From: an uncultured Pseudomonadales bacterium
Lineage (GTDB): Bacteria > Patescibacteriota > Microgenomatia > UBA1400 > RBG-16-45-19
Assembly (NCBI GenBank): GCA_964441155.1
Contig: CAYYKL010000001.1
Coordinates: 88,393-152,392 of the forward strand
Direction: 5' to 3'
Length of the DNA: 64,000 nucleotides
The notes under the pieces were generated by a model. The model saw nothing but the letters and a program-made list of their open reading frames with translations, did no database searches and had not been told where the DNA came from. Within the stretch, counting starts at the first letter, position 1. Each line of letters starts with the position of its first letter. Shown piece after piece: positions 7,124-63,184 of this stretch. Position numbers and translations under genes: made by a program.

Positions 7124-7232
7124 TTAAGCAATACCGGACAAAGAATCGACTTCATGTAAAAGGCGCTGTATAGCACGCTTGCCGTAAACCATAGTACGAT
7201 ACCTATGACTTCTAACCATTTACTGTTTATGG

Positions 7233-15758: not shown

Positions 15759-15795
15759 AACCACTGTTATTACTCCAAAATCTTCCATTTTTTCA

Positions 15796-16569: not shown

Positions 16570-16571
16570 GT

Positions 16572-42777: not shown

Positions 42778-43080
42778 ATGCCAACTCCCTTGTACCGCAC
42801 CATTTTACGCCAACTCATGCAAGAACATGATGCTGAGTTTAGCGCATTTGCTAAAGCACATGATGCCTATCAAAAACAGGGCGCCAAGCATCAGGCCAAA
42901 TTTAATGAAATTGGCTCTCCTGTGGTGGAATTTTTGCGAGAAGGTGAGCGGCGCTTGTGTGGTAAAACAGAACGGGGAACATACTCGGCTTATTCTTCAA
43001 CCTTGGCAGAAAAATATTGGAAAGAAGTTAAAGCCTTTTTCCCACTCATTGACTTCGTTGGAGCAAAAATTTCTTCATAA
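42778..43080 (+). CDS. Hypothetical small protein
   Basis: 100-aa ORF with a balanced, helical-looking composition (MPTPLYRTILRQLMQEHDAEFSAFAKAHDAYQKQG...). I prefer it to the overlapping 152-aa ORF in another frame, which has an odd composition. No family recognised. Confidence 0.3.
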   Translation: MPTPLYRTILRQLMQEHDAEFSAFAKAHDAYQKQGAKHQAKFNEIGSPVVEFLREGERRLCGKTERGTYSAYSSTLAEKYWKEVKAFFPLIDFVGAKISS

Positions 43081-44278
43081 TTTTCACCAACTTTTCTTTG
43101 CTAGTCACGCTTATTCGAATAAGTCGTTGCATATTAGTCATGCCAGTCCGCTTTGCTTTTTGCATGCACCAAGCCCATATCGCAACACTGACAATTGACA
43201 AACTGTTACCCAACATTCTTGGGACAGTTAGTTGAGTCATCTGACTCGTAACCAAATGCGTACCCGCTTCTAATTGATAGGCAACCAGGCCTGCATTATC
43301 CTCAGGATTTTCTAGAGTTACCGACAGGTCATTTGCTTTGACTCTCCAACCAGGAAAATACATAGTTTTTTGAATCAGTAGCGATTTTTCTGGAACAATT
43401 GCGGTAAAGGTGTTTTCCGACCAATGCTTGGGTTTATGAACTATTTTTACTGCGGCGTTTGGGCTAATTATTGTTCGATTTGGATAGTCATCAAATATAT
43501 CGCTGGCTTTTTTTTGATCAAACGTTGTTGCAATAAAGTTGCCCGAATGTTCATCTTTGATCAAAGCAGTCTGTTCAGTATAGTGGGGCAATACAAACCA
43601 CGCCGTGTTGGCACTAGCCCAAAACAAACACAAGATAAAAGGTTTTTTTAGTGATGTTTTTGCGACCGCCAGAACTCCTAACCCAAGCCCTGCGCAAAGC
43701 GCCAGCATAGCGCTTGATGCAAGTAATCCAAAGGACAACACAAGCACCAAGACCAACCCTTCTTTTGAGAGTGCTCGTGACCACCATTTAATGTTAAGTG
43801 AGTTAATTTTGACAAATCTTGAGGTTGCCCACACAAGCCAAGGCAAAGTCATCAAAGTTATAGGCAAATCACTTCCTACGAGATCAAGCGTAGCCACGAT
43901 AAGTAAAGTCGCGGTAGCGCTTGAAAACGTTAATAGCCGAGTTTTCTGAATTCTATCAATTTGATGCAATCCCCACAGAAAAAGGGCAATAATTATCAGG
44001 AGATTTGCACTTCGTGCTTGCATACCAGGTAAATCGAGTAAACCAGCGGGGATGCCGAGCCAAATCTTTACAGGATGGAGAAAGGTGAAGCGGGCATCGC
44101 CAAAGCCATTGTTTGCAAAGGTATCAAATCGGGGCGGCATGTGACCGGCAATCAGCGCTGTCAAATATTGAGTACTCTCGCTCGAATCTTTAGTGACTGT
44201 GAGGGGCTTGCTGCGTGCTTGGCTCCAAAGCATTGTCACGCTTGCCACTATTCCAACAATAACAATTATTTTCCTCAT
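43046..44278 (-). CDS. Membrane protein with YfhO/PTPS-related-like C-terminal YFPGW domain (short paralog)
   Basis: 410 aa. MPPRFDTFANNGFGDARFTF parallels the FP.RW..GFANYG.P motif of the larger paralogs. The C-terminus YFPGWRVKANDLSVTLEN...GLVAYQLEAGTHLV is shared with 44386, 51547, 55628 and 57344. Confidence 0.4.
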   Translation of the reverse strand: MRKIIVIVGIVASVTMLWSQARSKPLTVTKDSSESTQYLTALIAGHMPPRFDTFANNGFGDARFTFLHPVKIWLGIPAGLLDLPGMQARSANLLIIIALFLWGLHQIDRIQKTRLLTFSSATATLLIVATLDLVGSDLPITLMTLPWLVWATSRFVKINSLNIKWWSRALSKEGLVLVLVLSFGLLASSAMLALCAGLGLGVLAVAKTSLKKPFILCLFWASANTAWFVLPHYTEQTALIKDEHSGNFIATTFDQKKASDIFDDYPNRTIISPNAAVKIVHKPKHWSENTFTAIVPEKSLLIQKTMYFPGWRVKANDLSVTLENPEDNAGLVAYQLEAGTHLVTSQMTQLTVPRMLGNSLSIVSVAIWAWCMQKAKRTGMTNMQRLIRISVTSKEKLVKIMKKFLLQRSQ

Positions 44279-44385
44279 TGTCTTTATTGTAGACCTATTC
44301 GTTGATGTTCGAGAAAAGTGAAAGCTTTTTCAGGCAGCATGACAACGACAACAATGCGTCGTTTGCGCACTTAAGAATTGCCAAT

Positions 44386-46125
44386 CTAGTTTAATATTAA
44401 ATTTTTGCGAGTCTTACCCATTTGAAAGCTTATAAAAATTAAGATCGATAAAACACTAATCAAACTAATTAAAGATGTTATTTCTGCAATTTTTTGAACA
44501 TCCGTTTTCTCCAGATCTAAAACTAGTGAATGCTGTCCAGGTGGCAAATAAACAGAAAGTAGTCCGTTATCGCCCGCAAATGATTCAATTTCTTTTCCAT
44601 CTTTATAAACTTTCCACATAGGAAAGTAGAATACTTCCAGTTGCGTTAATCCAGCAATCTCGTTTGATATTTGATGCACTTTTTTTCCTGGCCTCAAACT
44701 CTGCTGCGGAAAAATACCCTCTGCTTGACGTGCTCTAATTTCCGTCGAAGGATTTTTGGGCAGCTTGCGCACGGCAATTGGCAAGGATTCAAGTGATATT
44801 TCAGTAGAGCCATAATAATCGGTATTCGTTAAAATTGTTTGATCATCATAAAACTTGACTTCCATAGGTCTGAGATAATTTCGACTTGCAAACGCAAAGC
44901 TAATCAGAAGCATTATGACTACTAAGTTTCTTGAAATTTTGGTTGCAAATTGACTAACTAGCCAAGCTGTCAGCCAAGACAAACTAACTGCAGGCAACAA
45001 TAACCATCTCCAGGGATACTGAGTCTTGCTTAGCAAAGGCATGTGATTCCATAAAAGCATTGACCAATCCAAACTCATTGTCATTCCAAAAACTGTTATC
45101 CCAAGCATGGTAAGTGCAAGCCAAAAGAGTTTCTTCTTTTTCCAATTTAGCCCGATAACAGCAAGTGCGACAAACAACACCAACCAGTGTGCCAATCCCA
45201 TTTGAAAAGACATACCATCGCTCGTTCCAGCACTTGAGTAACCATACCCCCAAGGCGAATAGAGCAATTGTCTCAAGGTCACAAAATGATCCGTGGCCTG
45301 AACAGTCGGCTGATGACCCATGCGCACAAAAGCCGATTCAGTCACGACAGGCACCCAATAAAAGGCAGATAAAAGCAGCGCAAGCACACACGAGACAAGC
45401 ATCATCTGTGCTGCCTTCATCCGTTGACTGCTCGCTGCTTTTAGCACATAGAGTCCGTAAACAACCAATAATGGAAGCGCAATAAATGCAGACAATATAT
45501 GGGAAAGCAATAAGCCACTCAAACTTAGTGCGATGCAAAGAATACCCAATAAATTTCGTTGAGTAGAAATTCCAATTTTTATGCTCAACAAAGCCAAAGG
45601 CAAGAATAAAAACGCCATGATTGTTCCCAATTGTCCCGACACATACAGGCTAAGCAAATGATATGGAACGAGTAGATAGGCAATTGCACCCACAAAGGAT
45701 GGTTTCCTGTCAAAATATCTACGCAACCAAAAATACATAGCTATGATGGAAAGCGTCGTTGAAGTAATAATCGTAAGATTCAAACTAGTAGTGAGATCCC
45801 ATCCTGAAAATACGAAAATACTCGCAAAATAGTAAGGCAGTGGATAGGTGTAGTTAAAAACAGGATAGCCAAATCCATTCATCATATCCTGAGCTAATCG
45901 AACTGGAAATTGGCCGTGAGCCAGTTCACGAGTTAGATGAGAAAGCCTTATGAGATGATGTTGCCCATCATGGGTTTGGAATAGTCCTGGACCAAAAAAA
46001 TACTTAAGCACCACCAATGAAATCAATACAAGCATAACCACTGGAGCCACAGTCAGCACCCTAGAAAAAACAATTGAATTTCTTCTTCTGGCGCCGCTGA
46101 GTCTAGTTTTTTGTAGCATATGCAT
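44386..46125 (-). CDS. YfhO/PTPS-related-like GT-C membrane glycosyltransferase
   Basis: 579 aa. N-terminus QTHDGQHHLIRLSHLTRELAHGQFPVRLAQDMMNGFGYPVFNYTYPLPYY, about 12 TM helices, and C-terminus FYFPMWKVYKDGKEI...LPPGQHSLVLD. Confidence 0.45.
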   Translation of the reverse strand: MHMLQKTRLSGARRRNSIVFSRVLTVAPVVMLVLISLVVLKYFFGPGLFQTHDGQHHLIRLSHLTRELAHGQFPVRLAQDMMNGFGYPVFNYTYPLPYYFASIFVFSGWDLTTSLNLTIITSTTLSIIAMYFWLRRYFDRKPSFVGAIAYLLVPYHLLSLYVSGQLGTIMAFLFLPLALLSIKIGISTQRNLLGILCIALSLSGLLLSHILSAFIALPLLVVYGLYVLKAASSQRMKAAQMMLVSCVLALLLSAFYWVPVVTESAFVRMGHQPTVQATDHFVTLRQLLYSPWGYGYSSAGTSDGMSFQMGLAHWLVLFVALAVIGLNWKKKKLFWLALTMLGITVFGMTMSLDWSMLLWNHMPLLSKTQYPWRWLLLPAVSLSWLTAWLVSQFATKISRNLVVIMLLISFAFASRNYLRPMEVKFYDDQTILTNTDYYGSTEISLESLPIAVRKLPKNPSTEIRARQAEGIFPQQSLRPGKKVHQISNEIAGLTQLEVFYFPMWKVYKDGKEIESFAGDNGLLSVYLPPGQHSLVLDLEKTDVQKIAEITSLISLISVLSILIFISFQMGKTRKNLILN

Positions 46126-46128
46126 GAC

Positions 46129-47745
46129 CTAATTTTTGGGAGTTTGAGCAACAACAAACACTGGCTGACCATTGGGTAAGTCGACAGTTTCGACAACCAT
46201 AGAATCATCTGGATTAATTTCTTCTGGCGTAGCAATGTAAAGGGTATTAGCGGTACTTTCTGGCCAATTTATTTTACGTAATTCGTAATTCGCCAAAGCC
46301 CCAAATAAAAATTCTTGGGGAGTGATTCTTCGATACAGCAATGTATAAATATACGGCTGCCCATAAGCGTCAGTTATGACAACTTTATTGACGTGTCTGC
46401 CTCTGGTTTTTGCAATGGCAATAGCTTCTTTATAGCCGTATTGATGATCAAGAGCAGAACTAAGTGCATATGAATAATAATAGGCATGGATATAAGAAAC
46501 GAACTCAGCAAAAAGCACAAAAACTAGTAAGCTATGAAAAATTAATTTTGTGTTTACCTCTATTCTCGCTATTTTTGATTCTATAAATGCCCAACCGATT
46601 GCGCTAATAATCATAATCGCCGGCAACGCCAACAAACTTCTTAATGAATGAGGAACTACGTCTCCTAGAACTGCTGGAATAATTCCAATCACCACCCAGC
46701 CAATAAGAAATATTGAATAGTTTTTTCGAATTCTTTTTAATAAAAACCCCAAACCAATTAGGAAGAGTGAAAATTGAAGTTTGTAAAGCACTCCATGGCC
46801 AGATACCGAATGACGAACACTAGCAGCATCAGCTCCGCTAATCCAAAAGTTTGGCGAAAGTTGACTATAAGTATTTTGCGCCACTAACTGGAGCACTTTG
46901 GAAGGCATTTCCAAATTTCCGGATTCGTCATAAATAACCAGGCTTTCTGCCCTAGTGCCTCCTTCTCCCCAAATCAAATCTTGAGCAAGAGGCAAGCTCA
47001 AGATGATACCCAAAAGCATTGCGGGTAACCACCATTTCCATCGCCCCAGTCTTTCTCGGAAGTAAATCAATATGAATGCTGCGGTGAAAATTGGAACGAA
47101 GATTTTGGTACTGTGATACGCGTACATGCTTGCAATTAAACTAATGGCACCAAGACTATAATAGTGTGGCTTGTTAAATGCTTTTAGCAAAGCCCATACC
47201 CCAATAAGCAACAGTGTGAGAGCAATGTTGGCTTCGTATCCAGCTCTGGAGAAATGAATGTGCCATGGTGAAATTGTCGTAAAAATACTCGCTATGAGCG
47301 CGATTTTTGTTGCAGAAACAGCGGGCACGAGCATTAGTTTTTTCAAGAGCAGCTGGGATATTTTGTAAACCAAAATAACGGCAACTATTCCAGCAATTGC
47401 AGAATATACACGAATTAAATTCTCATGTAATCCAAATAGTTTAAACGGCACACTTAGAGCGTAAATAAGCAGCGGGGCTTTATAATCACCAAATGATTTA
47501 AATGAAACGGGCATGAAGTTGGCGTACTCATCACGATGCCAAGTAGCAATTCCCCAGGCGTTATAGGTAATTGCAGCTTCATCCCATGTATATCCTATGG
47601 GAACCTGGCCAAGCTTATACAGCCTTAAAAAAGCAGCAACTATCACAACAAATACAATTAAAATTGATGGAAAGCAGTTTCTCACAACATTGTTTATGTT
47701 TACCAATTTGCGAGAGTTGGGCACTATTTTTGTAGACACTGTCAA
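46129..47745 (-). CDS. ArnT/PMT_2-like GT-C membrane glycosyltransferase
   Basis: 538 aa. The first loop LGQVPIGYTWDEAAITYNAWGIATWHRDEYANFMPVSFKSFGDYKAPL carries a DE motif. The start is TTG at 47745 or GTG at 47739. Confidence 0.5.
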   Translation of the reverse strand: MTVSTKIVPNSRKLVNINNVVRNCFPSILIVFVVIVAAFLRLYKLGQVPIGYTWDEAAITYNAWGIATWHRDEYANFMPVSFKSFGDYKAPLLIYALSVPFKLFGLHENLIRVYSAIAGIVAVILVYKISQLLLKKLMLVPAVSATKIALIASIFTTISPWHIHFSRAGYEANIALTLLLIGVWALLKAFNKPHYYSLGAISLIASMYAYHSTKIFVPIFTAAFILIYFRERLGRWKWWLPAMLLGIILSLPLAQDLIWGEGGTRAESLVIYDESGNLEMPSKVLQLVAQNTYSQLSPNFWISGADAASVRHSVSGHGVLYKLQFSLFLIGLGFLLKRIRKNYSIFLIGWVVIGIIPAVLGDVVPHSLRSLLALPAIMIISAIGWAFIESKIARIEVNTKLIFHSLLVFVLFAEFVSYIHAYYYSYALSSALDHQYGYKEAIAIAKTRGRHVNKVVITDAYGQPYIYTLLYRRITPQEFLFGALANYELRKINWPESTANTLYIATPEEINPDDSMVVETVDLPNGQPVFVVAQTPKN

Positions 47746-47890
47746 TTGTTCTTATCCATAAGCACTAGTATTCTACGATTATAGCTGGAAAATTTGAGAA
47801 TTTCTTTAAATGCCTTAATAAGGCACTATCACATGATTGCCAAAGTACAAGGCATATAACTTTTAAAAAGGTATCACGCTATTTAGTCGC
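47746..47890. promoter_or_regulatory. Divergent AT-rich intergenic region between two GT-C genes; probable bidirectional promoter
   Basis: At 145 bp this is the largest non-coding gap in the window. It is AT-rich and flanked by divergently oriented starts at 47745 (-) and 47891 (+). No specific -35/-10 could be assigned with confidence. Confidence 0.3.
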
Positions 47891-49690
47891 ATGTACTACA
47901 ATAACTTGAATATGCATGTATTAATCACAAAACAAATCCAAAAGAGCTTTAAAAAATCAGACTGGGCTTTTATCGTAATCGCCGCCAGTCTTTTATTAAT
48001 CGGAATCAGCATGAGGACACTATATCCAGGGAATTATCCCTTTGGATTCGATCAAGTGCAAATATTAGAAAACGCAAAAAAAATTCATCAGGGTAATCTA
48101 ACTCTAATTGGTCCAAGAACTGGTCCAGCGACTTTATTCACAGGCCCGTTGATTTATTATGCGACTGCATTATTCATGCCTTTTTTTGGTGAACCCTATT
48201 CTGTTGTTGTCGCCAGCTTGAGTTTCTCAATCATTACTGGTTTATTCGCGCTAATTCTTAGCATTCATTACTTTAAAGACAGACTTCTATCATTGTCGGT
48301 GACTGCAATTTGGTCACTATCACCGTTTATGATTCAGATGGACAGGATTTCTTGGAACCCGAACATCAGTATGCTTGCAGGACTACTGGTTAGTTTTCCC
48401 ATTTTTGCTCGACTACTCAACAACAAACCATTACGCTTGGGTGACGCTTTAATTGTGGGGCTAGGAGTATTTCTAGGATATCAAGCACATTTTTCGGGGT
48501 TGATATTAATTTCATATGCGCTCTTCGGCTGGTGGCTACTTCCCGCAAAAAAGTTTTACGCAGCAATAATTGTCTTTATCTCTTTTATGCTTTCATTGAT
48601 GCCCACAATACTTTTTGACATTCGTCATAATTTCTTAAATATCACTGGATTATTAGCCCTGTTTCAAGATGATAGCAAAGTTTCTTTACATGATTTTGGG
48701 TCAACTGCAGTCAACAACTTTTTCACCGTTTTCCATTTGACAGGCAGGCTTTTATGGGAACACAACAATCCACTATTCGTTGGCCTAACTGGAGTCTTTG
48801 TATTTCTTTTTGTGATTGCCTATAAGCTTTGGTCGGTTAAGCTTCGAGTCTACATTCTTTCTTGGATAGTTGGCATGCCATTTGTTTTTGTTTTTTATAA
48901 ATCAAATATTCCTGAATATTATTATCTGATACTCGTGCCTACCTTGCTATTTCTTTTGAGTTTTATCGGAAAAATTGTTTTTGAAAATCAGAATATGAAA
49001 TTGAAAATGAGTTTTTTTGTGCTGCTTGCTGCTTACTTGACTGCAGTTTCATTAACCAAATCTATCGCACCTAGCTTTACAAGTATTAAGGAAGTACGCG
49101 AAACAACATCATATGCAAAGGGCATGTTGGAAAACAATGCAAACCTCACGGTCGTATTCGACATGGAACCGATTGATAGCCTAGGCTACAAGTATCTTAT
49201 GAGAGACTATATAGATCGCTTTGCTTATTCACACACCTTACTCCACATGATCCATCCAGCATCTCCTAATGCATTCTCAGATTATCAATCAGGCAAAGCA
49301 GCTGTATGGGAAGACTTGAGAACAGATGCTAATGCTAATCACTACTTAGCAGACAGTGAATATATTATAAAAACTCCAAGGAATCTAAAGCTCTACAAAG
49401 ATATTTCTGGTTATGAGGGCTTTCCTCAAGCAGATTCACTTGCGGTGATTATGGATGGAAAAGAGCAAGCTTATCTCTTAATTCTACCCATTGCAGCAAG
49501 CGAGCCGAGCGCTCCTGAACAAGAAATAATAACTGCATGTTCGCAAGGAAAACAGCTCACCAGCAATAATCAGAAACTTAAGTGTTCACAGCATTATGCT
49601 CTTTGGTTAGAGCCTTCAAACTATAATGAAACAGCAATCATTGATTTGAGCAATATATCGCTCATAAAAGAAATGGGCTTAGACAATTAG
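47891..49690 (+). CDS. Polytopic GT-C-like membrane glycosyltransferase
   Basis: 599 aa. The first loop YPFGFDQVQILENAKKIHQGNLTLIGPRTG is paralogous to NDEASDLARLYQLGHNFKLTLIGPISN in 59773..61221. Confidence 0.4.
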   Translation: MYYNNLNMHVLITKQIQKSFKKSDWAFIVIAASLLLIGISMRTLYPGNYPFGFDQVQILENAKKIHQGNLTLIGPRTGPATLFTGPLIYYATALFMPFFGEPYSVVVASLSFSIITGLFALILSIHYFKDRLLSLSVTAIWSLSPFMIQMDRISWNPNISMLAGLLVSFPIFARLLNNKPLRLGDALIVGLGVFLGYQAHFSGLILISYALFGWWLLPAKKFYAAIIVFISFMLSLMPTILFDIRHNFLNITGLLALFQDDSKVSLHDFGSTAVNNFFTVFHLTGRLLWEHNNPLFVGLTGVFVFLFVIAYKLWSVKLRVYILSWIVGMPFVFVFYKSNIPEYYYLILVPTLLFLLSFIGKIVFENQNMKLKMSFFVLLAAYLTAVSLTKSIAPSFTSIKEVRETTSYAKGMLENNANLTVVFDMEPIDSLGYKYLMRDYIDRFAYSHTLLHMIHPASPNAFSDYQSGKAAVWEDLRTDANANHYLADSEYIIKTPRNLKLYKDISGYEGFPQADSLAVIMDGKEQAYLLILPIAASEPSAPEQEIITACSQGKQLTSNNQKLKCSQHYALWLEPSNYNETAIIDLSNISLIKEMGLDN

Positions 49691-49758
49691 GTGCAGATTC
49701 AAATTGAAGTCTAGCGTGAAAAGTGTTCTGATATGCGTAATTACGTTTTCATCTTATA

Positions 49759-51534
49759 TTACTTGAATTTTGCAAAATAATTTTGACAAAATTCTATTTG
49801 TGATTTCTTTTCTACAAGCATGTCTTGATGATTAGATAGCTCGATAAATGGTTTCAGCTGCACGTCATTGCAGAATGCATCATTATAAATATGCCAATAC
49901 GCGCCATTATCAACCACCGATGGAATCGTAAGCACTTCACTATTTTCATGTCCTTCACAAACACCTCTCCATGATTCATTTATCACGATAGCGTCTTTGG
50001 AGGGATTGGCACATTCAGTGGTAAATATAATATTATTTATACTTGATGTGTGATCTGAAAGTTGTTGAGCAAATTCAGATGATGTTTTTTTGGAGTAATA
50101 ATCCGAATAGACAATATAATTCCACAGCATTACAGGCACATCCACGGCATGAACATAAATTGGTACTAAAGGGTCAATGCTTCTAATTCTATCAATATAA
50201 TTAATAACGACACGCTCACTGAAATAACTAATATTCAATCCAAGTATGGGATATCTATAGAAATACTGGTACCCAAAGTAGAGGATCGAGAAACCATAAC
50301 ACAAGAAAAGCACTATTTTGGTTATCTTTGATTCTAATAGCCAGTAAACCCCCCACGCAATAAAGCCGATTAAAAGCGTATAGGCAAAAAACATTCTCAA
50401 AAGATACCATGAGCCTCCTGCATTAATCGTTGAGGGAATCGCTGCAATAAATATAAATCCTATTATTGAAATATGTTTATGAAAATGCTCTTTATGCCGA
50501 CCCATGAAAAACAATCCCAGCAGAAGTAACCCGAAATCTATTGCATAAAACCAGCCATGTCCCCAAACAGCAAATTTACTCTGCGCGGGCTCACCCGACC
50601 AGAACATCATCAGAGAATTAAATGCGCCTATAAATTTTTCCGTAATAAATTTTACGGTGATAATTACTTTATTGCTAAATAAGGATGCAAACGGATTATC
50701 TAAAGACAATCTACGCTCATTATTTGTCTGCTCAGAAAGAAATTCTGTGTCTTTAAAAATTGACTGAGAGAATCGATCTGCGACTGATTGATTGGGTAAA
50801 AGAAATGATAAATACGCCACAAATAAAGCTAAGCTCAGAAGTAAAAACGCTTTTATTTGTCGTTTGATTTTTTGACCTTCTTGGCTGGTTGCCTTATGCC
50901 AAAGTAATAAAAATAACCATGGAAGAAAAAGTAATTTATAACCTTGATAACCAAAAAAACCCACCGATATCAAAATAAAACTTAAACTTATTCCCCTCCA
51001 TGTTTTAGTCCTCAAAAATAGAGAACCTGCTAATAAATAAAAGAATACGCTAAAAACAGCATCATACATCAGTCTAGATAATTGCCACAGAAGTGGATTA
51101 AAACTTGCGACTACTAATACACAATTAGCCAGTTTTCTATTTTTGTACCATTCGTAAAAAAACCAACTCAAAACAAATGGGAATAATATCCCCAGCACAA
51201 GAGAGAGTCCCCTAGTAGCTAATAGTGGATTTTCAATTAGCCCGAAAAAAGGAATCATAAATACGCCAGGGAGTTCGGCATACATCGGATGAAGTGGTTG
51301 CAAACTCCAGGGGGCATAAGTTTGATCAATAGTTTTTCCCGTTAAGGCCATTGCTTTGGATTGGGCAGCATACACCAGTTCATCATGGGTGAGGGCAGCC
51401 GGAAAAACACTCGCCAAAGTCAGTCGACTCAATAGAATGCCAACTAGACAAGCCACAATGACAAAGATATATCCTCTTCGATTAATTAAATCGTATCTTG
51501 TAAAAAGCTTTCTTGTTTTCATATTAAGCTGCAC
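49759..51534 (-). CDS. ArnT/PMT_2-like GT-C membrane glycosyltransferase
   Basis: 591 aa. ALTHDELVYAAQSKAMALTGKTID after the first TM helix gives a D/E loop-1 motif. The track start at 51534 is GTG, with an ATG at 51522. Confidence 0.45.
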   Translation of the reverse strand: MQLNMKTRKLFTRYDLINRRGYIFVIVACLVGILLSRLTLASVFPAALTHDELVYAAQSKAMALTGKTIDQTYAPWSLQPLHPMYAELPGVFMIPFFGLIENPLLATRGLSLVLGILFPFVLSWFFYEWYKNRKLANCVLVVASFNPLLWQLSRLMYDAVFSVFFYLLAGSLFLRTKTWRGISLSFILISVGFFGYQGYKLLFLPWLFLLLWHKATSQEGQKIKRQIKAFLLLSLALFVAYLSFLLPNQSVADRFSQSIFKDTEFLSEQTNNERRLSLDNPFASLFSNKVIITVKFITEKFIGAFNSLMMFWSGEPAQSKFAVWGHGWFYAIDFGLLLLGLFFMGRHKEHFHKHISIIGFIFIAAIPSTINAGGSWYLLRMFFAYTLLIGFIAWGVYWLLESKITKIVLFLCYGFSILYFGYQYFYRYPILGLNISYFSERVVINYIDRIRSIDPLVPIYVHAVDVPVMLWNYIVYSDYYSKKTSSEFAQQLSDHTSSINNIIFTTECANPSKDAIVINESWRGVCEGHENSEVLTIPSVVDNGAYWHIYNDAFCNDVQLKPFIELSNHQDMLVEKKSQIEFCQNYFAKFK

Positions 51535-51546
51535 ATTTGTATTTTT

Positions 51547-54889: not shown

Positions 54890-54973
54890 ACTTTATTGTA
54901 ACAGTGATTTTCACGCTTAAACTGCACTAGTTTAGACTTTGTAACCTTTAATCTATAAGCCTTAGGGAACTTT

Positions 54974-55636: not shown

Positions 55637-57340
55637 AGTATTAGTATAATTTTCCTTCTGATTTTGTCCATAATCTTCTCAGGTGATGCTCTTTTTACAA
55701 ACCTTCAACCTGCGCATATGGATGGAGTTGTGCACCTAACAAACATGGCGATCTTTAAGGAAGCAATTGAAGATGGTGATTTCCCGGTGAGGTGGACGGA
55801 TGGGTTTGCAAATTATGGACTTCCCATGGGATCTTTCGCGCAACAATTCACTTCCTACTTTGGAGCCCTCCTCACCTTTCTCACCAATGATCTGAACGTT
55901 TCCTATAATTTAGTACTATTATCTGGAACTTTCTTTTCATTATTGCTGCTGTATGCAACTCTAACCATGTATACAGATAATCTTTCGGCTCTTGCTGGCT
56001 CTGTTGTCTTTAACTTCTCTAGCTATCGAATTATTAATGCACATATTCGTGGCGCCTTACCTGAGTTTTTTTCAAGTGTTTTTCTTATTGGTTTGCTTTA
56101 TACATCTGCGCTCTTGTTTAAAAAAAGAAGTATATTAGCGTTTCTTTTGACAGTTTTGTTCTTTTCAGGCTTGATATTAACTCACCCCATGATGCTAGTT
56201 CCCGCCTTCGTCATACTTATCCCCTGGACCATTTTTCTCTACTTCGAGTCAGCAAAGGTTAACAAACCACTTGAAGCTAATAATAGCTTAATTATCCTTA
56301 CATTAGGAATGCTTTTGGGTTTAACGCTCAGCGCTTACTATTCTTTGCCACTTCTGCATGATATTAAATATTTCTATTACGGACAGCAATCTAATCATAT
56401 TGGACCAGAAACGCACCTAAGTGTATCTGAGCTTGTCGAGCCAGCTTGGCATTATTTTTTTGTTTCAAACAACAGCATCTTGTCCAGAGGACATGTTATT
56501 AAATTTGGGCTTATTGAGTCGGGAATTCTTGTGTTTGGCTTTTTACTTTTAGTATTTCGCAGGCGATTCAGAATCAATAAAAATGTTAATTTGCTAGCCA
56601 TGGTCAATATCGTTGCAGCAACTTTATTGTTCTTGGTTTCTAGGTATTCAGTTGAATTATATCAAAAAATTAGTTTTCTCAGCTCGATTCAATTCCAATG
56701 GAGAATGCTTTCTGCCTTGATTATCGTGCCACCTATTATTTTGGCAATATATTTGAATTCTCTCAATAAAATCCCACGACAAATACTATTCTTGATTATC
56801 TCATGCAGCATAACTCTCGTAAGCGCTAAGCAACTGTATGGCAAGAATTTCCAATTTCTTTCACAGGATTACTATTATCGGACGGTTCAAAATTTGCATT
56901 CTAACAATATGAATACTATTTGGACGGGAGAGACTAGCACCTATCCTTCAAATCAACCACAAGTTGAAATAATAGAGGGAGATGGAGAATTACTCCAACA
57001 GAATTTCCACAATTCTTCACGTGATTATATTTTACAAGCGCAGGCCTCAGTGAGAATCCTAGATAAAACGTTCTATTTTCCGGGCTGGAAAGTCTATGCA
57101 GGAAATGAAGAGATTCCCATCGAATTTCAAGACCCCAATTATCGTGGTGTAATCACGTTTCAAATACAAAGCGGCCAGCACGCTATTCGAACAGTATTTG
57201 AACCGACAAAAACAGTCCAAATTTCGAATGTGATTACTCTAGTCACACTCATAGCTCTGCCATTAATCGTCCTTATACTCATAAAAATTAATCTATTGTC
57301 GAATCGAGATCACAAACGAGCCCTTGAGATGATGCATTAA
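55628..57340 (+). CDS. YfhO/PTPS-related-like GT-C membrane glycosyltransferase
   Basis: 570 aa. HMDGVVHLTNMAIFKEAIEDGDFPVRWTDGFANYGLPMGSF, with C-terminus FYFPGWKVYAGNEEIPIEFQDPNYRGVITFQIQSGQH. Confidence 0.45.
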   Translation: MKHSISIIFLLILSIIFSGDALFTNLQPAHMDGVVHLTNMAIFKEAIEDGDFPVRWTDGFANYGLPMGSFAQQFTSYFGALLTFLTNDLNVSYNLVLLSGTFFSLLLLYATLTMYTDNLSALAGSVVFNFSSYRIINAHIRGALPEFFSSVFLIGLLYTSALLFKKRSILAFLLTVLFFSGLILTHPMMLVPAFVILIPWTIFLYFESAKVNKPLEANNSLIILTLGMLLGLTLSAYYSLPLLHDIKYFYYGQQSNHIGPETHLSVSELVEPAWHYFFVSNNSILSRGHVIKFGLIESGILVFGFLLLVFRRRFRINKNVNLLAMVNIVAATLLFLVSRYSVELYQKISFLSSIQFQWRMLSALIIVPPIILAIYLNSLNKIPRQILFLIISCSITLVSAKQLYGKNFQFLSQDYYYRTVQNLHSNNMNTIWTGETSTYPSNQPQVEIIEGDGELLQQNFHNSSRDYILQAQASVRILDKTFYFPGWKVYAGNEEIPIEFQDPNYRGVITFQIQSGQHAIRTVFEPTKTVQISNVITLVTLIALPLIVLILIKINLLSNRDHKRALEMMH

Positions 57341-57343
57341 ACT

Positions 57344-59095
57344 TTAGAAGTCTTTTTTAAAGAGTCTACTTATATTCGAATAAAGTGCTGGTCTACTCGA
57401 AAGGTATATGCCCCCAATTAATCCCATTGCGATTAATGAAATCAGCTTAGATGCGAATCGAACCTTGGTGTCTTTATATCTTAAATCTATGCGATAACTG
57501 CCTTGAGGTATTTTGAGAGTCATAACTCCACGATAACTTGGATCTTGATATTCAACGGTTTGTTCGAGACCATCTATTAAGATTGTCCATCCAGGAAAGT
57601 AAAAGGTGTTAAAAGATATCCTCGAGGGTATTTCAGCAGAAACTTGATAAGAACGTTTCGAAGCTGTTTCTTTAATAATCCTAGCTTCCGCCGTTCCCTC
57701 AATTACCGTTAACAAAGTTTTTTGCTGAGGATAGTCCTTAGTCTCGCCCACCCAACGAGGATTTAAGTTTGTGCTATGCAGGTTTTCTTTGGTAAAGGAA
57801 TAATAGTCAACGTCATGATTCACATAGTTTTTTCCATACGCTTCTGGAAGCCTAGTTAAGGCTAAAATAATCAGTAGAGCAAGAATTGAATATTTTTGCA
57901 GCCGAAATCTAGCATGCAAAAGAGTAGCTAACACTGAAACACTAAAGTGAAATGACATCAAAAATCTCCATGGGTATTGAAGATTGGATAAAAACATCAG
58001 CTTTGAATACAAAGGCGCTGATAATGGAGTGCACAGGAAGAGCGAAAGTGACGCAGCAAAGAACCAAATTCCCAAGGCTCTATTACTTTTGCTTTTGCAA
58101 GCAAGCAAGATAATAGTGACCAATGCAATCAAATATATGCCAAGCTCGATTATGCCGATGGGAATAGGTCCAATTCTAGGGCCAGGATGATCGGTCAGGG
58201 AAAAATAGGGCCATTGAATAACCGAAGCACTCTTCCAATTTAAAAATTTATCCAATTCAATGAGAGATGCCCCCGATCCCTGATAGAAATACTTTGTCTC
58301 AATTATTAATGGAAACAAATAATAGGCACCTGCCAATATTCCCAGCGCAATCATGCTCGTCACCAAAAAAATATTGGAGAATGCTGATTTTTTTAGAGAT
58401 ATCTTCGAAAAAGCAATCGCGACTAGTAGTGGCATGGTTATGATAATTGCCATTGGATGAGTAAGCACGAGCAAAGCACTTAAGACTGCCACTAAAGCTA
58501 ACCCCCGCGCAGTTGGCTTGGACAAGCTTTTTGACATTTGAAAAAGCAAAATTGGCAACAAAGCACTTACCAATAGTTCCGGAATAGCACCCCGACTATA
58601 AATATTGATTATTCGGTAATGTGAGAAAGTCCAAACCAGAGATCCACCCAATGACGTAAGAGTGACTCGCTTTTCATTTGGCACTGGCTTTTGCAGAATA
58701 TTTTGCAAAAACCAGAACATCCCCAAACCACTGAATATAGTGCTGACTAATATAATGATTTTGAAAACTATATGTGGAGATAATCCCAAAAGCAAAAGGG
58801 TGGCACCAAATATTGCACTTGTTTGATGGGCAATTAAACTTAATGGATACCCATAATTCGCAAACCCCTGAAACCAAGAAGGAATTTCCACCCCTTTAAG
58901 AATTTGAGCGTACTGCACTGCGGTTGTAAGGTGAATGTGTCCATCAAAGGTTGTGGGAATTCCTGGATGGGATAACAAGTCAAGATTTAGCAAAATACTT
59001 GAGAAAAATATAATGCCATAGGCCCAAAACTGGATAGATAATAGAGCATAACTATTTCTTACATACTTGCTTACTTGCATGTATTTATTATCCAC
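57344..59095 (-). CDS. YfhO/PTPS-related-like GT-C membrane glycosyltransferase
   Basis: 583 aa. FDGHIHLTTAVQYAQILKGVEIPSWFQGFANYGYPLSL, with C-terminus FYFPGWTILIDGLEQTVEYQDPSYRGVMTLKIPQGSY. The track start at 59095 is GTG, with an ATG at 59080. Confidence 0.45.
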   Translation of the reverse strand: MDNKYMQVSKYVRNSYALLSIQFWAYGIIFFSSILLNLDLLSHPGIPTTFDGHIHLTTAVQYAQILKGVEIPSWFQGFANYGYPLSLIAHQTSAIFGATLLLLGLSPHIVFKIIILVSTIFSGLGMFWFLQNILQKPVPNEKRVTLTSLGGSLVWTFSHYRIINIYSRGAIPELLVSALLPILLFQMSKSLSKPTARGLALVAVLSALLVLTHPMAIIITMPLLVAIAFSKISLKKSAFSNIFLVTSMIALGILAGAYYLFPLIIETKYFYQGSGASLIELDKFLNWKSASVIQWPYFSLTDHPGPRIGPIPIGIIELGIYLIALVTIILLACKSKSNRALGIWFFAASLSLFLCTPLSAPLYSKLMFLSNLQYPWRFLMSFHFSVSVLATLLHARFRLQKYSILALLIILALTRLPEAYGKNYVNHDVDYYSFTKENLHSTNLNPRWVGETKDYPQQKTLLTVIEGTAEARIIKETASKRSYQVSAEIPSRISFNTFYFPGWTILIDGLEQTVEYQDPSYRGVMTLKIPQGSYRIDLRYKDTKVRFASKLISLIAMGLIGGIYLSSRPALYSNISRLFKKDF

Positions 59096-59104
59096 ATATG
59101 TTGA

Positions 59105-59737
59105 ATGAATTGCTATCTCAACAATTCCGCATTACGATTAATCAGCATGAAAACGAAACTATTTATAATCGCATTTTTACTAATTGGTGCTTATTTGAGT
59201 CTTCTTGCAAAACAGGTTTTTACTTCTATAAACACCTTATGCTCGCTAAACTCCTATGTACGAACCCATAATAAAATAGATGCAAAGTGGTTTTGGGAAT
59301 GGCGAGACAAAAATTATGGCTTTTATACCTTTGACAATAACGTGGTGTCGCCGGGAATGACGCATCGATTTAATTCTAATAATTCTGAAGCTTTTTTATT
59401 GGAGGCGTATACTGCGCCAAATATAAGAAGCGTTGATTATGTTGCTATTCCTAATATTACACCCAGCTCACTTTCCACAATTAAAGCACTATCTGCTCAA
59501 GAAAATAAGAATATCCCTATTAAAACTGAGTCTAATTATTCACTAAGCAAGCTCGTCGATTCAAATGTGATTCAACTAGAAACATCGTTTACAACGGAAG
59601 AATTGATGCATACAAATGGCTTATTTGATTTTTTACCCGAAGAACGTGAGCAACTCAAAGAAAAAGTGTGGAAGTCAGTCAACCTCATAAAATTTTCGCC
59701 CTGGGCAAGACATATGTGCCATCAACCTTTATTTTGA
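59105..59737 (+). CDS. Small signal-anchored protein, paralog of 54974..55636 (unknown family)
   Basis: 210 aa with one N-terminal TM helix (LFIIAFLLIGAYLSLLA) and AKWFWEWRDKNYGFYTFD. It is divergent from 57344..59095. Confidence 0.35.
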   Translation: MNCYLNNSALRLISMKTKLFIIAFLLIGAYLSLLAKQVFTSINTLCSLNSYVRTHNKIDAKWFWEWRDKNYGFYTFDNNVVSPGMTHRFNSNNSEAFLLEAYTAPNIRSVDYVAIPNITPSSLSTIKALSAQENKNIPIKTESNYSLSKLVDSNVIQLETSFTTEELMHTNGLFDFLPEEREQLKEKVWKSVNLIKFSPWARHMCHQPLF

Positions 59738-59772
59738 CAACGTGGATTGGCATTGCTGAAAATTTATCAGCT

Positions 59773-61221
59773 TCATTTTTGAAACCAGAACACTTTCCAT
59801 TGAGTTCTGTCTACAGGAAATGCAGCCTTTAGTGAAACCTGTTCAAAAAAATTCATTGCAACTGAATTATCATTTCTTAAGTCAAGCTCATCTCCAGTCG
59901 TTACAACATACAAACGGCTTGATGTGTCGTATTCAGACGCTTGCTTTAGTCCTATGCCATGCATGCCTAAAACATGGCGATACAATTCACCCATGGGGGC
60001 TTTGTCTGGAGAAACATGGACTGCGATATTGACATCGATTGTTGGATCAGTGTCTTGAATGTCTCGAATTATTTTTACTACTCCATCTACGACAGCAGGG
60101 CTAGGATGCACCCGAGTTTGAAACATTAATTCAGGAAGCTTGCTAACTGATGTAATCGACATAAATGAAATAATCACAAGAACCATAGACTGACTGAATC
60201 TATTAGTTCGTTTGGCAATCAACCACATGAAAAAAAACGGTAAAGCAGGCAAAAAATAGCGAGTAGCTATATTGTCAATAAAAACCATCATGCTTAGCTG
60301 AGCTAGGACAGGTGCGAACCATTTCAATGCTCTACGGTTGTATTTAAGGTCGAAAATTATCAGCATTGATACGAACAATACAAAAAGAAAACTTAATCTA
60401 GTGTTGGAGACTAAGTACGAAAAGGTTTCGTAAGTAACAGCAAGAAATCTTGTGAACAAGTGATCCAATTCTCCACTGACAACATTTGGAGCATCACCTG
60501 AAACGAAATATTTTCCAAAGAATAATCCAGGTGGATGTCGTAAATCAAACAGGACAAACGGTGATAATGCGATAGCTAAACCGAGGATTATAGCCATGAG
60601 ACTAATTAATTGCTGTTTCTTATTTTTCTTTGAAAAGATCACACTGACACACTCAACAACGAAAAAAGCCACAATAGCAACAATGGCTATATAGTGATGA
60701 TGCACCGATAAACCCAAGGATATGCCCGCAAAAAACTTAAACAGTGGTTTTTGTTTTAAAAGCAAAAGAAGAGCAGCGAAAATCCAAAGCGGCATGAAGT
60801 GAGGGTTCCATGCCCACCGCCCAGTTTCAACAAGCGGATACCAAACAATAGCTAAGAGACCGACTGGGATCACCAAGGATTTGTTTGTTTTATACGTTAT
60901 GAAAATAATAATTAATGAAGTAATCACACTCCAAAATGCTGTCCCCACTGCTGGACTGGCAGCGGAATAATTAAGTGCCATAACAAAAGGAAGCTGCAAG
61001 TAATAGGTAAGTGATCCAAAAACTTTTGTGTTGTCGTTGGAAATAGGGCCAATCAAGGTGAGTTTAAAATTATGTCCCAGTTGATAGAGACGTGCTAAAT
61101 CCGATGCCTCATCATTGGTAAATCGAGCGGTTTCAGCTAAATTAAAAAATCGAGTGAACAACAAAGCTATAAAAAGGAGAGCAAATATAATGAGGTGCAG
61201 CGACAGTTTTTTTATTATCAT
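59773..61221 (-). CDS. Polytopic GT-C-like membrane glycosyltransferase
   Basis: 482 aa. The loop FNLAETARFTNDEASDLARLYQLGHNFKLTLIGPISND is paralogous to 47891..49690. Confidence 0.4.
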   Translation of the reverse strand: MIIKKLSLHLIIFALLFIALLFTRFFNLAETARFTNDEASDLARLYQLGHNFKLTLIGPISNDNTKVFGSLTYYLQLPFVMALNYSAASPAVGTAFWSVITSLIIIFITYKTNKSLVIPVGLLAIVWYPLVETGRWAWNPHFMPLWIFAALLLLLKQKPLFKFFAGISLGLSVHHHYIAIVAIVAFFVVECVSVIFSKKNKKQQLISLMAIILGLAIALSPFVLFDLRHPPGLFFGKYFVSGDAPNVVSGELDHLFTRFLAVTYETFSYLVSNTRLSFLFVLFVSMLIIFDLKYNRRALKWFAPVLAQLSMMVFIDNIATRYFLPALPFFFMWLIAKRTNRFSQSMVLVIISFMSITSVSKLPELMFQTRVHPSPAVVDGVVKIIRDIQDTDPTIDVNIAVHVSPDKAPMGELYRHVLGMHGIGLKQASEYDTSSRLYVVTTGDELDLRNDNSVAMNFFEQVSLKAAFPVDRTQWKVFWFQK

Positions 61222-61267
61222 GCTATTTATAATTCTCTTGTAAATTGATTTTTAACGCACATATTCT

Positions 61268-63184
61268 TTATTTTCTTTTATAAATGATTGCATCACCTGA
61301 ACTGGTTACAACCTCAAAATATTCAGCGAAGTTATTACTATTTTCTTCTTGAGTAAATTTTTCAGGAATGTATAAATACATTATATGGTGAATTTTCATT
61401 AATTCATCAATCTCCTTAGCAGACATATTAACATCGAATGATTTTTCAACTATATTCTTTGCATTTACGCTATATATCTGGAGTAAGTCAGCTTGAGTTT
61501 GGTTACAATAGAAGCATGGTTTCCCACTCAGTGCAGGAATGATAGCCTTGTCCTCGTAAGGTGCTAATACCGATCCTGGATCTTGTTGCTTTAATTGCTC
61601 TAAAACGAGTAAGTTGGATTTGGATATAGCATATGCATTGGTCGTCCTCGATGAAATTTGATTTGCAATGGTGAAGATTGATGTGGGGAAAGCAAGGAAA
61701 CCAACTATTAACGCTAAAAGCACTTCCCGCCTCCCAATTTGAGTAAAAGCCACAATCACAAGCGGAGTTAAAAGCACATACGCATAATAACCAAATTGAA
61801 TGGTATTCCACTCGACACCAGACTGAGAGAAGAGTAGCGGAAAAAGTAGTGCGGCTAGAATCAAAACAATAAACTGATTTTTTTCAGGATTATTAATCCT
61901 ATGAAGACCATAAAATCCAATCAACCGACTTCCCATATTGCCGAGTATAAAGACAATTATTCCTGCAGCCCACAGAGCCGTTAGCCCGAGGTAATTGGAT
62001 TGTGCTTCGTAGCTTAGTCGCCTTAACTCCCAGCGTGGCAGATTAATGCGATCAGAGGCTTCAAACATAGTTTTTACAAACCATCCAGGATTCCACTCTA
62101 GCCCCGCCGATTGAGGCGACCCCAAAGTGGAACGAGCGACAACAAGAAATGATGCGATGCATACAAACAAAAATATCATCGCGAACATGATTAATCGTTT
62201 TGTTAGAAGCCATGCACCCATGTAAACTCCACCCAGAAGAAGTAACACACCGCCATAAGCTTTAATTCCCAAATGACTTCCAATCATGAACCCAATAAGT
62301 GCAACATTTAGCCTCTCAGGCTTTCGATAAACCAAAATACTTAAGTTCAGTGTTAATATGAAAAGTGAAAATGACACTCCAAGTGGCAAGTTCACCCAGG
62401 TAGATATGTTTTGATGCATCCAAAATGCACTCTCATTTACTGATTGTTGAAGGCCAATTAGTGGCAATATATATGCCAAGCTCCCTCCACCAATCAACAG
62501 CATTCCCGAGAAAATTTCTAACAAGAACTTTTTCTTCTGATTCAGCACATATTTTGACGGCAAGAGTGAAAAAGATAATTTTTTAATCCCATACAATGCC
62601 AATAACCCGAATAGAAATGGATATACCCTAAATACTAAGTCCTGGGATTTAATTCCAAATAGTCTCACGAACTCAGAACCGGATAAATCGACTAAATAGT
62701 GATAGCCTTCAAGACTGAATTGTGCAAATGTAGGCATTACTCTGTCTGAAGCTGATGCTAATGTTTCCATTAAGGCCATATGCCACACACCATCATGGGC
62801 GTTGACCCCATGAAAAATCATTTCTCCGTCTTTTATCCAGCCGGATAAAAACACCGGCATAGTCCAAATAAAAGCAAACATAAGCTTGAGTAATAATCGA
62901 GCTAGCACCGATCTACTGAATAGCATCAGAATCGAACCTAAACTCATGCTTCGAGCCGAAATTATGCCAATGATAAATATCGCAAAATTAATCAGGGTAT
63001 TTAAGGTATGGCTTGGGGATACAAACAATAATAAAACCCAAATCACATATCCCACTCCGAAGCCATAAAATAATTGCTCACTAGGACTATTGGTAATGTG
63101 CCGCGTAAAAAATTTTCCAAATAATGCCAGTGTCAGGAACCAAAAAAATACCTGAAATAACGGTGCAATAAATTGAATAAACAT
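61268..63184 (-). CDS. Large polytopic membrane protein with C-terminal soluble domain (possible GT-C)
   Basis: 638 aa with at least 12 TM helices, a WIKDGEMIFHGVNAHDGVWHMAL loop, and a soluble C-terminus of about 130 aa. Family not recognised. Confidence 0.35.
   Translation of the reverse strand: MFIQFIAPLFQVFFWFLTLALFGKFFTRHITNSPSEQLFYGFGVGYVIWVLLLFVSPSHTLNTLINFAIFIIGIISARSMSLGSILMLFSRSVLARLLLKLMFAFIWTMPVFLSGWIKDGEMIFHGVNAHDGVWHMALMETLASASDRVMPTFAQFSLEGYHYLVDLSGSEFVRLFGIKSQDLVFRVYPFLFGLLALYGIKKLSFSLLPSKYVLNQKKKFLLEIFSGMLLIGGGSLAYILPLIGLQQSVNESAFWMHQNISTWVNLPLGVSFSLFILTLNLSILVYRKPERLNVALIGFMIGSHLGIKAYGGVLLLLGGVYMGAWLLTKRLIMFAMIFLFVCIASFLVVARSTLGSPQSAGLEWNPGWFVKTMFEASDRINLPRWELRRLSYEAQSNYLGLTALWAAGIIVFILGNMGSRLIGFYGLHRINNPEKNQFIVLILAALLFPLLFSQSGVEWNTIQFGYYAYVLLTPLVIVAFTQIGRREVLLALIVGFLAFPTSIFTIANQISSRTTNAYAISKSNLLVLEQLKQQDPGSVLAPYEDKAIIPALSGKPCFYCNQTQADLLQIYSVNAKNIVEKSFDVNMSAKEIDELMKIHHIMYLYIPEKFTQEENSNNFAEYFEVVTSSGDAIIYKRK

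Follow-up and report, generated by a model that had tools for sequence, protein, structure and literature searches.

What is the function of the large membrane proteins encoded side by side over 20 kb of a patescibacterial genome, and are they a recent expansion or an old possession of the lineage? The block lies in a 64,000-nt stretch of contig CAYYKL010000001.1 (positions 88,393 to 152,392; assembly GCA_964441155.1; GC content about 40%), hereafter called the window, which is deposited as an uncultured Pseudomonadales bacterium and placed by GTDB in the Microgenomatia. The original prediction, made from the letters of this window, had proposed that positions 43046 to 63184 hold eleven paralogous genes for polytopic glycosyltransferases of the GT-C type, amplified and diversifying, which act outside the membrane. 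Using a listing of open reading frames (ORFs), Pfam searches, hhalign profile comparisons and AlphaFold2 (AF2) models we find a 20-kb block of GT-C-fold membrane glycosyltransferase-like genes of which ten are intact and one is degenerate. We consider it likely that these proteins are a battery of enzymes, typical of the lineage, that would work outside the membrane with polyprenyl-phosphate sugars as donors and would lengthen, branch or decorate those surface glycoconjugates that the surrounding gene island produces.

Composition of the array

All eleven ORFs were found where they had been placed, with lengths of 410–638 amino acids (aa); genes are named here by their first coordinate. The multiple transmembrane (TM) segments expected of them were seen in 10 of the 11 (6–12 hydrophobic segments in a crude Kyte–Doolittle hydropathy scan) and not in 43046, which has three. 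Most of the gene content between 43046 and 63184 is of the GT-C type as proposed, the exceptions being two interleaved genes for single-pass proteins of about 200 aa that form a non-GT-C family of their own. The array does not end at 63184, since at least three further GT-C-like genes lie past the end of the window.

43046..44278, minus strand: degenerate YfhO-like paralog, 410 aa (C-terminal BLAST and hhalign similarity; no Pfam or NCBIfam hit)
44386..46125, minus strand: YfhO/PTPS_related-type GT-C, 579 aa (PF10131 37.2 bits and PF09586 32.0 bits, both above cutoff)
46129..47745, minus strand: PMT_2 (ArnT/GT39-like) GT-C, 538 aa (PF13231 27.3 bits, cutoff 26.1)
47891..49690, plus strand: 'LTLIGP' GT-C with a beta-rich C-terminal domain, 599 aa (AF2 model and Foldseek; no direct Pfam match)
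49759..51534, minus strand: divergent PMT_2-like GT-C, 591 aa (BLAST and hhalign; no Pfam hit)
51547..53283, minus strand: YfhO-like GT-C, 578 aa (BLAST and hhalign; no Pfam hit)
53243..54889, minus strand: PMT_2 GT-C, 548 aa (PF13231 36.7 bits; 41-nt overlap with 51547)
54974..55636, minus strand: small single-pass membrane protein, 220 aa in the longest ORF (head-to-head with 55628)
55628..57340, plus strand: YfhO-like GT-C (PTPS_related/DUF6541-like), 570 aa (PF20176 and PF10131 below cutoff; hhalign)
57344..59095, minus strand: YfhO-like GT-C, 583 aa (PF10131 30.1 bits, above cutoff)
59105..59737, plus strand: second small single-pass protein, 210 aa (head-to-head with 57344)
59773..61221, minus strand: 'LTLIGP' GT-C, 482 aa (hhalign; no Pfam hit)
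61268..63184, minus strand: Pfam-less GT-C, 638 aa, with a 3-TM N-terminal extension and an alpha/beta C-terminal domain (AF2 model and Foldseek)

The public gene calls for 55628 give a protein of 540 aa that starts at Met31 ('MDGVVH...') and from which TM1 is thereby removed; the 570-aa start is probably the correct one, because orthologs align through the longer N-terminus. As regards the proposed eleven GT-C proteins, ten are intact and 43046 is a degenerate remnant rather than an intact enzyme. It keeps the helix motif ('GHMPPRFDTFANNGFG') of the first extracytoplasmic loop (loop 1 or EL1) and the C-terminal FYFPGW domain with the last TM segment, and it is collinear with 55628 apart from large deletions, which have removed about 160 aa from the TM core. 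Its significant similarity to the YfhO-like group (BLAST, hhalign) is limited to the C-terminal ~100 aa, and the DGxxH motif is not conserved, a Thr lying opposite the predicted catalytic Asp and an Asp opposite the His. We read 43046 as a probably decaying or non-catalytic paralog. That it is an intact enzyme was ruled out by the deletions in the TM core together with the lost DGxxH.

Sequence relationships and the loop-1 motif

All-versus-all BLASTP recovered the three subfamilies that had been proposed. The YfhO-like group (44386, 51547, 55628 and 57344) shows mutual identities of 21–31% with E-values from 1e-10 to 1e-68; 57344 is the sister of 55628 (31% identity, 4e-68) and 51547 matches 44386 at 3e-36 over a span of 544 aa. 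In the PMT_2-like group (46129, 53243 and 49759) 53243 is matched by 46129 at 6e-27 and by 49759 at 7e-16, and the LTLIGP group consists of 47891, 59773 and the upstream gene 8428, while 61268 has no BLAST paralog in this comparison. The motifs quoted for these groups were present in the family and ortholog alignments: the YfhO-like consensus reads 'MDGxxH...GDFPVRWxDGFANYGLP' and 'TFYFPGW', the PMT_2-like proteins carry 'DE' in loop 1, and 'LTLIGP' occurs in both 47891 and 59773.

Pfam matches to the GT-C clan were obtained for 6 of the 11 array genes, one of them below cutoff, and no Pfam match for the other five; 55628 scored 22.7 bits against PF10131 (cutoff 26.4). Nothing in NCBIfam scored above cutoff for any array protein, the matches of 53243 to Agl23 and WsfD being weak and far below threshold. 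Among the homologs of 47891 there are some with a PF13231 match or annotated as 'glycosyltransferase family 39'. Profiles built from orthologs in the retrieved related loci (described below) interlink the YfhO-like, PMT_2-like and LTLIGP groups at hhalign probabilities of 95–100%. The members of the YfhO-like group are joined at 94–100% (51547 and 55628 at 100%, the latter to the 44386 group), 49759 is tied to the 46129 and 53243 groups at 100%, 59773 to the 47891 group at 100% and to the PMT_2-like groups at 96–99%, and 61268 to the 53243 group at 92% over 375 columns. Profiles of three array families gave no meaningful matches to PDB sequences.

An acidic residue directly after TM1 is conserved in the ortholog alignments of 10 of the 11 proteins, the exception being 43046. 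In the YfhO-like group and 61268 the motif at this point is (H/x)DGxxH, represented by 'HDGQHH' in 44386, 'SDDYNHH' in 51547, 'FDGHIH' in 57344, 'MDGxxH' in the 55628 family (D32 and H36 invariant) and an invariant 'HDGxWH' in EL1 of 61268. The PMT_2-like proteins have 'WDE' (46129), 'HDE' (49759) and 'ADE' (53243), and the LTLIGP proteins 'NDEAS' (59773) and 'FDQ' with an invariant D54 (47891). As the N-termini of the array proteins are rich in Lys and Arg, loop 1 is placed outside the membrane.

Predicted folds of 47891 and 61268

The two Pfam-less types represented by 47891 and 61268 were modelled because sequence searches of the PDB were negative; fold comparison thus covers two of the eleven proteins, the other nine being tied to GT-C by Pfam and hhalign. 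Both models are confident (pLDDT 87.9 and pTM 0.84 for 47891) and have 11 or more TM helices together with the EL1 helices. Their Foldseek matches are almost exclusively GT-C enzymes (ArnT, STT3/PglB/AglB, ALG9/12, Pmt, AftA/B/D, Emb and DPY19), transporters having E-values above 0.02 throughout and TM-scores near 0.1. ArnT was the best match of 47891, with ALG9, AftB, AftA and Pmt4 also at the top and AftD among the further matches. For the TM core of the 61268 model STT3, AglB and PglB rank first, and its predicted C-terminal domain appears to resemble a domain of the archaeal oligosaccharyltransferase (OST). The proposal that these proteins are GT-C-type enzymes and not transporters is therefore upheld by Pfam, the profile links, the predicted folds and the loop-1 acidic residues; the HMM and structure searches did not identify them as transporters or as other non-glycosyltransferase membrane proteins.

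The link of 61268 to OST stays at the level of structure because the domain-profile and Pfam searches were negative: none of 21 family members gave an STT3 Pfam hit even at E ≤ 1, and a profile of the C-terminal domain drew only chance-level matches from the PDB sequences, with no OST sequence among them. The WWDYG motif is absent from 61268 (the sequence contains no WWD). At its candidate position the family consensus is 'YxDTAYVSAFSGKP' and 61268 itself has 'PYEDKAIIPALSGKP'; that this position is equivalent to WWDYG is only our own reading. One member of the 61268 family weakly matches TMEM260-like. A fold and a likely activity can thus be assigned to largely unannotated membrane protein families, including a GT-C family without Pfam coverage.

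Age and distribution of the array

A scan of one genome per species with the 55628-family motif retrieved 80 related loci. Those of at least 15 kb usually contain 4–10 GT-C-like ORFs (range 1–10), and a typical Microgenomates locus has 4–10 such genes in ~21 kb. The implication that the locus is exceptional thus needs qualifying, as such arrays are the rule in this group. Nor is the description of the array as amplified and diversifying supported. The paralogs are only 21–31% identical, and each array member scores higher against relatives in other genomes than against any paralog in the window. Clustering gave 9–14 clades that recur, each with five or more members, and the array genes of the window belong to clades that occur in 3–79 loci (38 related loci for the 44386 clade and 45–49 for the 53243 clade; counts for the 55628 clade are biased upward because its family was the search query). 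Among 314 homologs of 55628 the named ones are Patescibacteria, mostly Microgenomates, and the clades turn up repeatedly in Roizman-, Levy-, Woese-, Pace- and Beckwithbacteria.

The array is 99.99–100% identical and unrearranged in contigs from five sequencing runs; two of the retrieved loci (L001 and L087) are the same locus as the window (99.995–100% identity). In a relative (locus L089) the orthologs are 55–76% identical and the order 61268-59773-small-57344-55628-small-49759 is kept (small being the single-pass genes); the pair 53243/51547 is missing there and a different gene stands in the place of 47891. Age, recurrence, invariance and synteny together point to slow gain and loss, and the array is an old, retained toolkit, neither a recent amplification nor a hypervariable region.

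The GTDB representative metagenome-assembled genomes that carry such arrays are often titled 'uncultured Gammaproteobacteria' or 'Pseudomonadales' (third party annotation), and single ones 'Limisphaerales' or 'Weeksellaceae'. These titles are probably placeholders, or else the contigs were mis-binned; the loci appear to share their gene content with named Microgenomates.

A small membrane protein paired with one clade

The products of 54974 and 59105 are single-pass membrane proteins of ~200 aa that belong to a shared family with the motifs 'fW.fREf..pG' and 'EM..NGffdy' and no Pfam or NCBIfam match. The placement of 59105 with 54974 is based on phmmer and profile hits to the same ortholog set and on an FWE[FW]RD motif. 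Across the related loci a homolog of the small protein lies immediately upstream of, and divergent to, 71 of the 84 genes of the 55628/57344 type and adjoins none of the 244 other GT-C-like genes, the two start codons of a divergent pair being separated by no more than a few tens of bases. In its longest form the ORF of 54974 overlaps 55628 by 9 nt (with the 570-aa start of the latter), and its true start is probably Met14; 59105 has an ortholog at the same position in L089 (61% identity). Since the module of GT-C and small partner is present twice in the window it has been duplicated as a unit. Among 1.8 billion proteins there are 52 representatives of the small partner, stand-alone and of ~150–240 aa. 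An exhaustive search found no fusion to a GT-C protein, a single hit of 1000 aa being weak and probably spurious. The small protein may serve as an accessory subunit, present the acceptor or have a regulatory role, and the tightly conserved gene pair that it forms with a GT-C is a new observation.

The surrounding glycan island

The array forms part of a larger gene island for cell-surface glycans, which spans at least 75 kb. When the window is combined with the identical contigs that continue beyond it, at least 19 GT-C-like genes are found in ~75 kb, together ~32 kb of coding sequence. The total of 16 GT-C-like proteins given for the window (11 in the array and five upstream) is correct, because the five upstream proteins are also GT-C-like by Pfam and hhalign; all five have GT-C-clan matches in Pfam, four above and one below cutoff, and 8428 is tied to the 47891 group by hhalign at 99–100%. 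Further features of the island are these.

2083..3561, 5504..7123, 8428..9936 and 10621..12186, minus strand, and 7233..8462, plus strand: five upstream GT-C-like genes (PMT_2, PMT or DUF2142)
754..2046, minus strand: Wzx-type (Polysacc_synt) flippase (PF01943 64.1 bits; adjoins GT-C gene 2083)
15598..17819, plus strand: Wzm/Wzt ABC exporter, Wzt with a Wzt_C glycan-binding domain (Pfam)
63252..64000, plus strand, cut by the window end (17535..19682 in L001): 715-aa secreted protein with a signal-like N-terminal segment (no Pfam or NCBIfam match)

GT4 and GT2 genes and a UDP-sugar-dehydrogenase-like fragment are interspersed among the five upstream genes (2083..12186). The centre of the island (12–42 kb) holds sugar-nucleotide epimerases and dehydratases, methyltransferases, an acetyltransferase and an asparagine-synthase-like amidotransferase, as well as transferases of families GT2, GT4, GT10 and GT11 and the Wzm/Wzt exporter (Pfam). 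In L089 a 59% identical counterpart of the 715-aa protein is likewise flanked by two GT-C genes at the equivalent position. It is followed by genes for a 754-aa YfhO-like GT-C (hhalign 97% to the 44386 group), a GT2–methyltransferase fusion, a GT2, a Wzx-like flippase, a PTPS_related GT-C and a PMT_2 GT-C.

A GT10-like gene (fucosyltransferase C-terminal domain, 26979–28019) and a GT11 gene (alpha-1,2-fucosyltransferase family, 28858–29760) flank a minus-strand methyltransferase gene. Because of these two genes, the nearby methyltransferases and the Wzt_C domain of Wzt, the content of the island suggests a glycan that may be fucosylated, methyl-capped and exported by the ABC route.

A transketolase is split into separate genes for the N-terminal thiamine pyrophosphate-binding part and the pyrimidine-binding/C-terminal part (20053–21707, plus strand) among the sugar-nucleotide enzymes, and may make a branched or two-carbon-extended sugar. 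Between two epimerase genes lies a toxin–antitoxin-like pair (14180–14811, plus strand) made up of a Polbeta/NTP_transf_2 nucleotidyltransferase of 95 aa and a HepT-like RNase of 115 aa, with a 4-nt overlap between the genes. The 248-aa ORF at 9875–10621 (minus strand) has weak, sub-threshold matches to parts of UDP-glucose/GDP-mannose dehydrogenase and in its longest form overlaps 8428–9936 by ~60 nt; truncation or decay of the gene may explain this.

Supply of donors

The candidate source of lipid-linked sugars is the GT2–methyltransferase fusion, which lies about 3.7–4.9 kb past the end of the window (4256–5521 in L087), near a Wzx-type flippase and further GT-C genes. Its best PDB match is dolichol-phosphate-mannose synthase (DPMS; 5mlz, 6e-21) over the entire catalytic domain, ArnC and GtrB following further down. 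The methyltransferase part, of class I, follows the DPMS-like GT2 at the C-terminus. The fusion is kept in L089 (81% identity), and to our knowledge this architecture is not known among polyprenyl-phosphate-sugar synthases. Homologous short GT2 genes occur inside the arrays of ~34 related loci, and one relative has a pair of GT2 and DUF2304 genes, which we take to be the GacI/GacJ arrangement. The GT2 genes of the window itself (1–745, 4676 and 32567) look like generic polymer-building GT2s and not like lipid-phosphate-sugar synthases.

Comparison with known systems

The multi-component transmembrane glycosylation systems of Gram-positive bacteria (CsbB/GtcA/YfhO, GtlA/GtlB, GacI/J/L and CsdAB/CD/EF) combine a GT-A/GT2 synthase of polyprenyl-phosphate sugars, a flippase and a GT-C of the YfhO or PMT_2 type acting outside the membrane, and YfhO, whose function is known only for Firmicutes, glycosylates teichoic acid (lipoteichoic or wall teichoic acid) with N-acetylglucosamine in B. 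subtilis, S. aureus and Listeria (PMC8035078). The array resembles them in having the same Pfam families, with a DPMS-like GT2 and Wzx-type flippases nearby. The Gram-positive systems have one GT-C per module and 1–4 per genome, however, whereas the array locus has at least 19 in ~75 kb; one DPMS-like synthase was seen at this locus and no GtrA-type flippase, no dedicated GtrA-profile search having been made, and the small membrane partner dedicated to one of its clades has no known counterpart.

In mycobacteria and corynebacteria a complex extracytoplasmic heteropolysaccharide is built from polyprenyl-phosphate donors by many GT-C paralogs (EmbA/B/C, AftA-D, PimE, Mpt and Pmt), every one of which is responsible for a particular sugar or linkage. 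The array is like this set in that Foldseek matches its predicted models to AftA, AftB, AftD and Emb, among others, and unlike it in that PDB searches revealed no sequence-level relationship, the actinobacterial genes are mostly dispersed, and the array host probably has a genome of ~1 Mb. This last figure is taken from the records of related genomes (1.10–1.17 Mb), which point to a reduced host genome of roughly 1 Mb.

The likeness to ArnT/GT83 and PMT/GT39 is found in the 'DE' or Asp of loop 1, in the PMT_2 hits of 46129 and 53243 and in ArnT being the best structural match of 47891. There are also differences, as the array proteins have no MIR domains in Pfam searches, unlike eukaryotic PMTs, and their C-terminal domains differ from those of ArnT and PMT, that of 47891 being predicted to be beta-rich. 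From STT3, AglB and PglB, 61268 differs in its EL1 motif ('HDGxWH' and not DxD), in its three extra N-terminal TM helices and in that its closest relative in the window by profile is PMT_2-like.

Patescibacteria are thought to have no outer membrane (PMC6744442), and lipid A is for this reason an unlikely acceptor. Meheust et al. (2019) described membrane families enriched in Microgenomates, mostly hypothetical, and suggested that those with more than four TM segments enriched in the candidate phyla radiation (CPR) 'may be involved in transport', glycosyltransferases being unmentioned (PMC6744442). In the literature we found no earlier description of a GT-C expansion in CPR or Microgenomates. 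Neither the superfamily of the enzymes nor the type of pathway is new.

Function of the array and alternative explanations

An extracytoplasmic, lipid-linked-sugar-dependent role of the array proteins is a reasonable inference, a DPMS-like GT2 and Wzx-type flippases adjoining the array. In the mechanism that we favour the DPMS-like GT2 would load sugars onto polyprenyl phosphate in the cytoplasm, a Wzx-type flippase would turn the loaded lipid outwards across the membrane, and each GT-C would then, by means of its conserved loop-1 Asp, hand the sugar on to a surface glycoconjugate, where every enzyme would serve an acceptor or linkage of its own. Characterized YfhO and PMT_2 proteins of the Gram-positive systems provide a precedent for this mode of action (PMC8035078). 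The likeliest acceptor would be a methylated, fucosylated glycan built by the GT2, GT4, GT10 and GT11 products and exported by Wzm/Wzt, although surface proteins are possible. Within this model a glycopolymer acceptor, which we rate at not quite an even chance, is somewhat more likely than a protein acceptor, which is doubtful, and both may apply. Gene content, assignment to family and fold, the loop-1 acidic residues, the age of the array and its spread among taxa, and the pairing of one clade with a small membrane protein are shown by the data; the type of donor, the side of the membrane, the identity of the acceptor and the existence of one specificity per paralog are all points that we infer.

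Several observations weigh against this reading or narrow it. The fold comparison covers two models, the TM counts come from a crude hydropathy scan, and the abundance of the 55628 clade from a search made with its own motif. Within the window there is no GtrB-type synthase, no GtrA-type flippase, no small ORF with three or more TM segments and no DUF2304 homolog, no dedicated GtrA-profile search having been made, and a single DPMS-like GT2 was found near ~19 GT-C genes. With one synthase for ~19 GT-C proteins, donors must therefore be shared or made elsewhere in the genome, and a model of one donor per enzyme is unsupported.

A rather unlikely alternative is that the array serves mainly for O-glycosylation of secreted or surface proteins (S-layer proteins, pilins, Ser/Thr-rich regions) in the manner of PMT/GT39 and TMTC enzymes, rather than for decoration of a polysaccharide, and that 61268 might be an oligosaccharyltransferase moving a finished glycan en bloc. 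The PMT_2 and PMT hits speak for it, as do the matches of 53243 to Agl23 and WsfD (from archaeal and S-layer protein-glycan pathways, weak and far below cutoff), the first rank of STT3/AglB/PglB for the 61268 model, the weak TMEM260-like hit in its family and the combination of Wzm/Wzt with methyltransferases, which we take to resemble ABC-dependent S-layer glycan clusters. However, 61268 has neither an STT3 Pfam hit nor WWDYG, its C-terminal profile finds no OST sequence, no candidate acceptor protein was identified, and the characterized YfhO enzymes modify teichoic acids and not proteins (PMC8035078). It is very improbable that the array is a recently amplified, fast-diversifying family making variable surface glycans, for example for phage escape or host recognition. 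Such a family could account for the many adjacent paralogs, the gain and loss of genes between genera (L089 is without 53243/51547 and has another gene at the 47891 site) and the decaying 43046, but hardly for paralogs that are 21–31% identical and all have closer relatives in other genomes, for clades that recur from Roizman- to Levy-, Woese-, Pace- and Beckwithbacteria, or for an array that is 99.99–100% identical without rearrangement in five sequencing runs and keeps its core synteny at 55–76% protein identity. Recent amplification or hypervariability is largely refuted by the closer external relatives, the invariance, the synteny and the recurrent clades.

That these are transporters or other non-glycosyltransferase membrane proteins could be argued from the lack of a Pfam hit in 5 of the 11 and from the suggestion of transport for CPR-enriched families with more than four TM segments (PMC6744442). 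We regard it as hardly tenable, because GT-C enzymes occupy the top fold ranks with transporters at E > 0.02 and TM-scores near 0.1, the Pfam-less members are profile-linked to the PMT_2 and YfhO groups, and the loop-1 acidic residue is conserved. At the level of predicted fold, transporter identity is refuted.

Returning to the battery of GT-C enzymes acting on surface glycoconjugates, a more specific joint scheme can be drawn up, which is speculative and in our estimate improbable as a whole. A lineage-specific extracytoplasmic heteroglycan layer, analogous to mycobacterial arabinogalactan and lipoarabinomannan, would be built by a conserved toolkit of at least a dozen GT-C clades; the 61268 family would be an unrecognized bacterial relative of STT3/AglB/PglB that moves a glycan exported by Wzm/Wzt or Wzx en bloc to protein or cell wall; and the 55628/57344 clade would be an obligate two-subunit enzyme together with the small partner.

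Significance

Three features set this locus apart: so large and so well conserved an array in a reduced genome, a family without Pfam coverage that looks OST-like in predicted structure, and a small partner protein reserved for one clade. Members of the CPR/Patescibacteria have genomes of ~1 Mb and are without most biosynthetic pathways. That at least 19 large GT-C genes are nevertheless kept in one island, and that their clades persist among the relatives, implies that an elaborate surface glycan has long been under strong selection. Such a glycan could plausibly govern host attachment, phage resistance or envelope integrity in these not-yet-cultured organisms.

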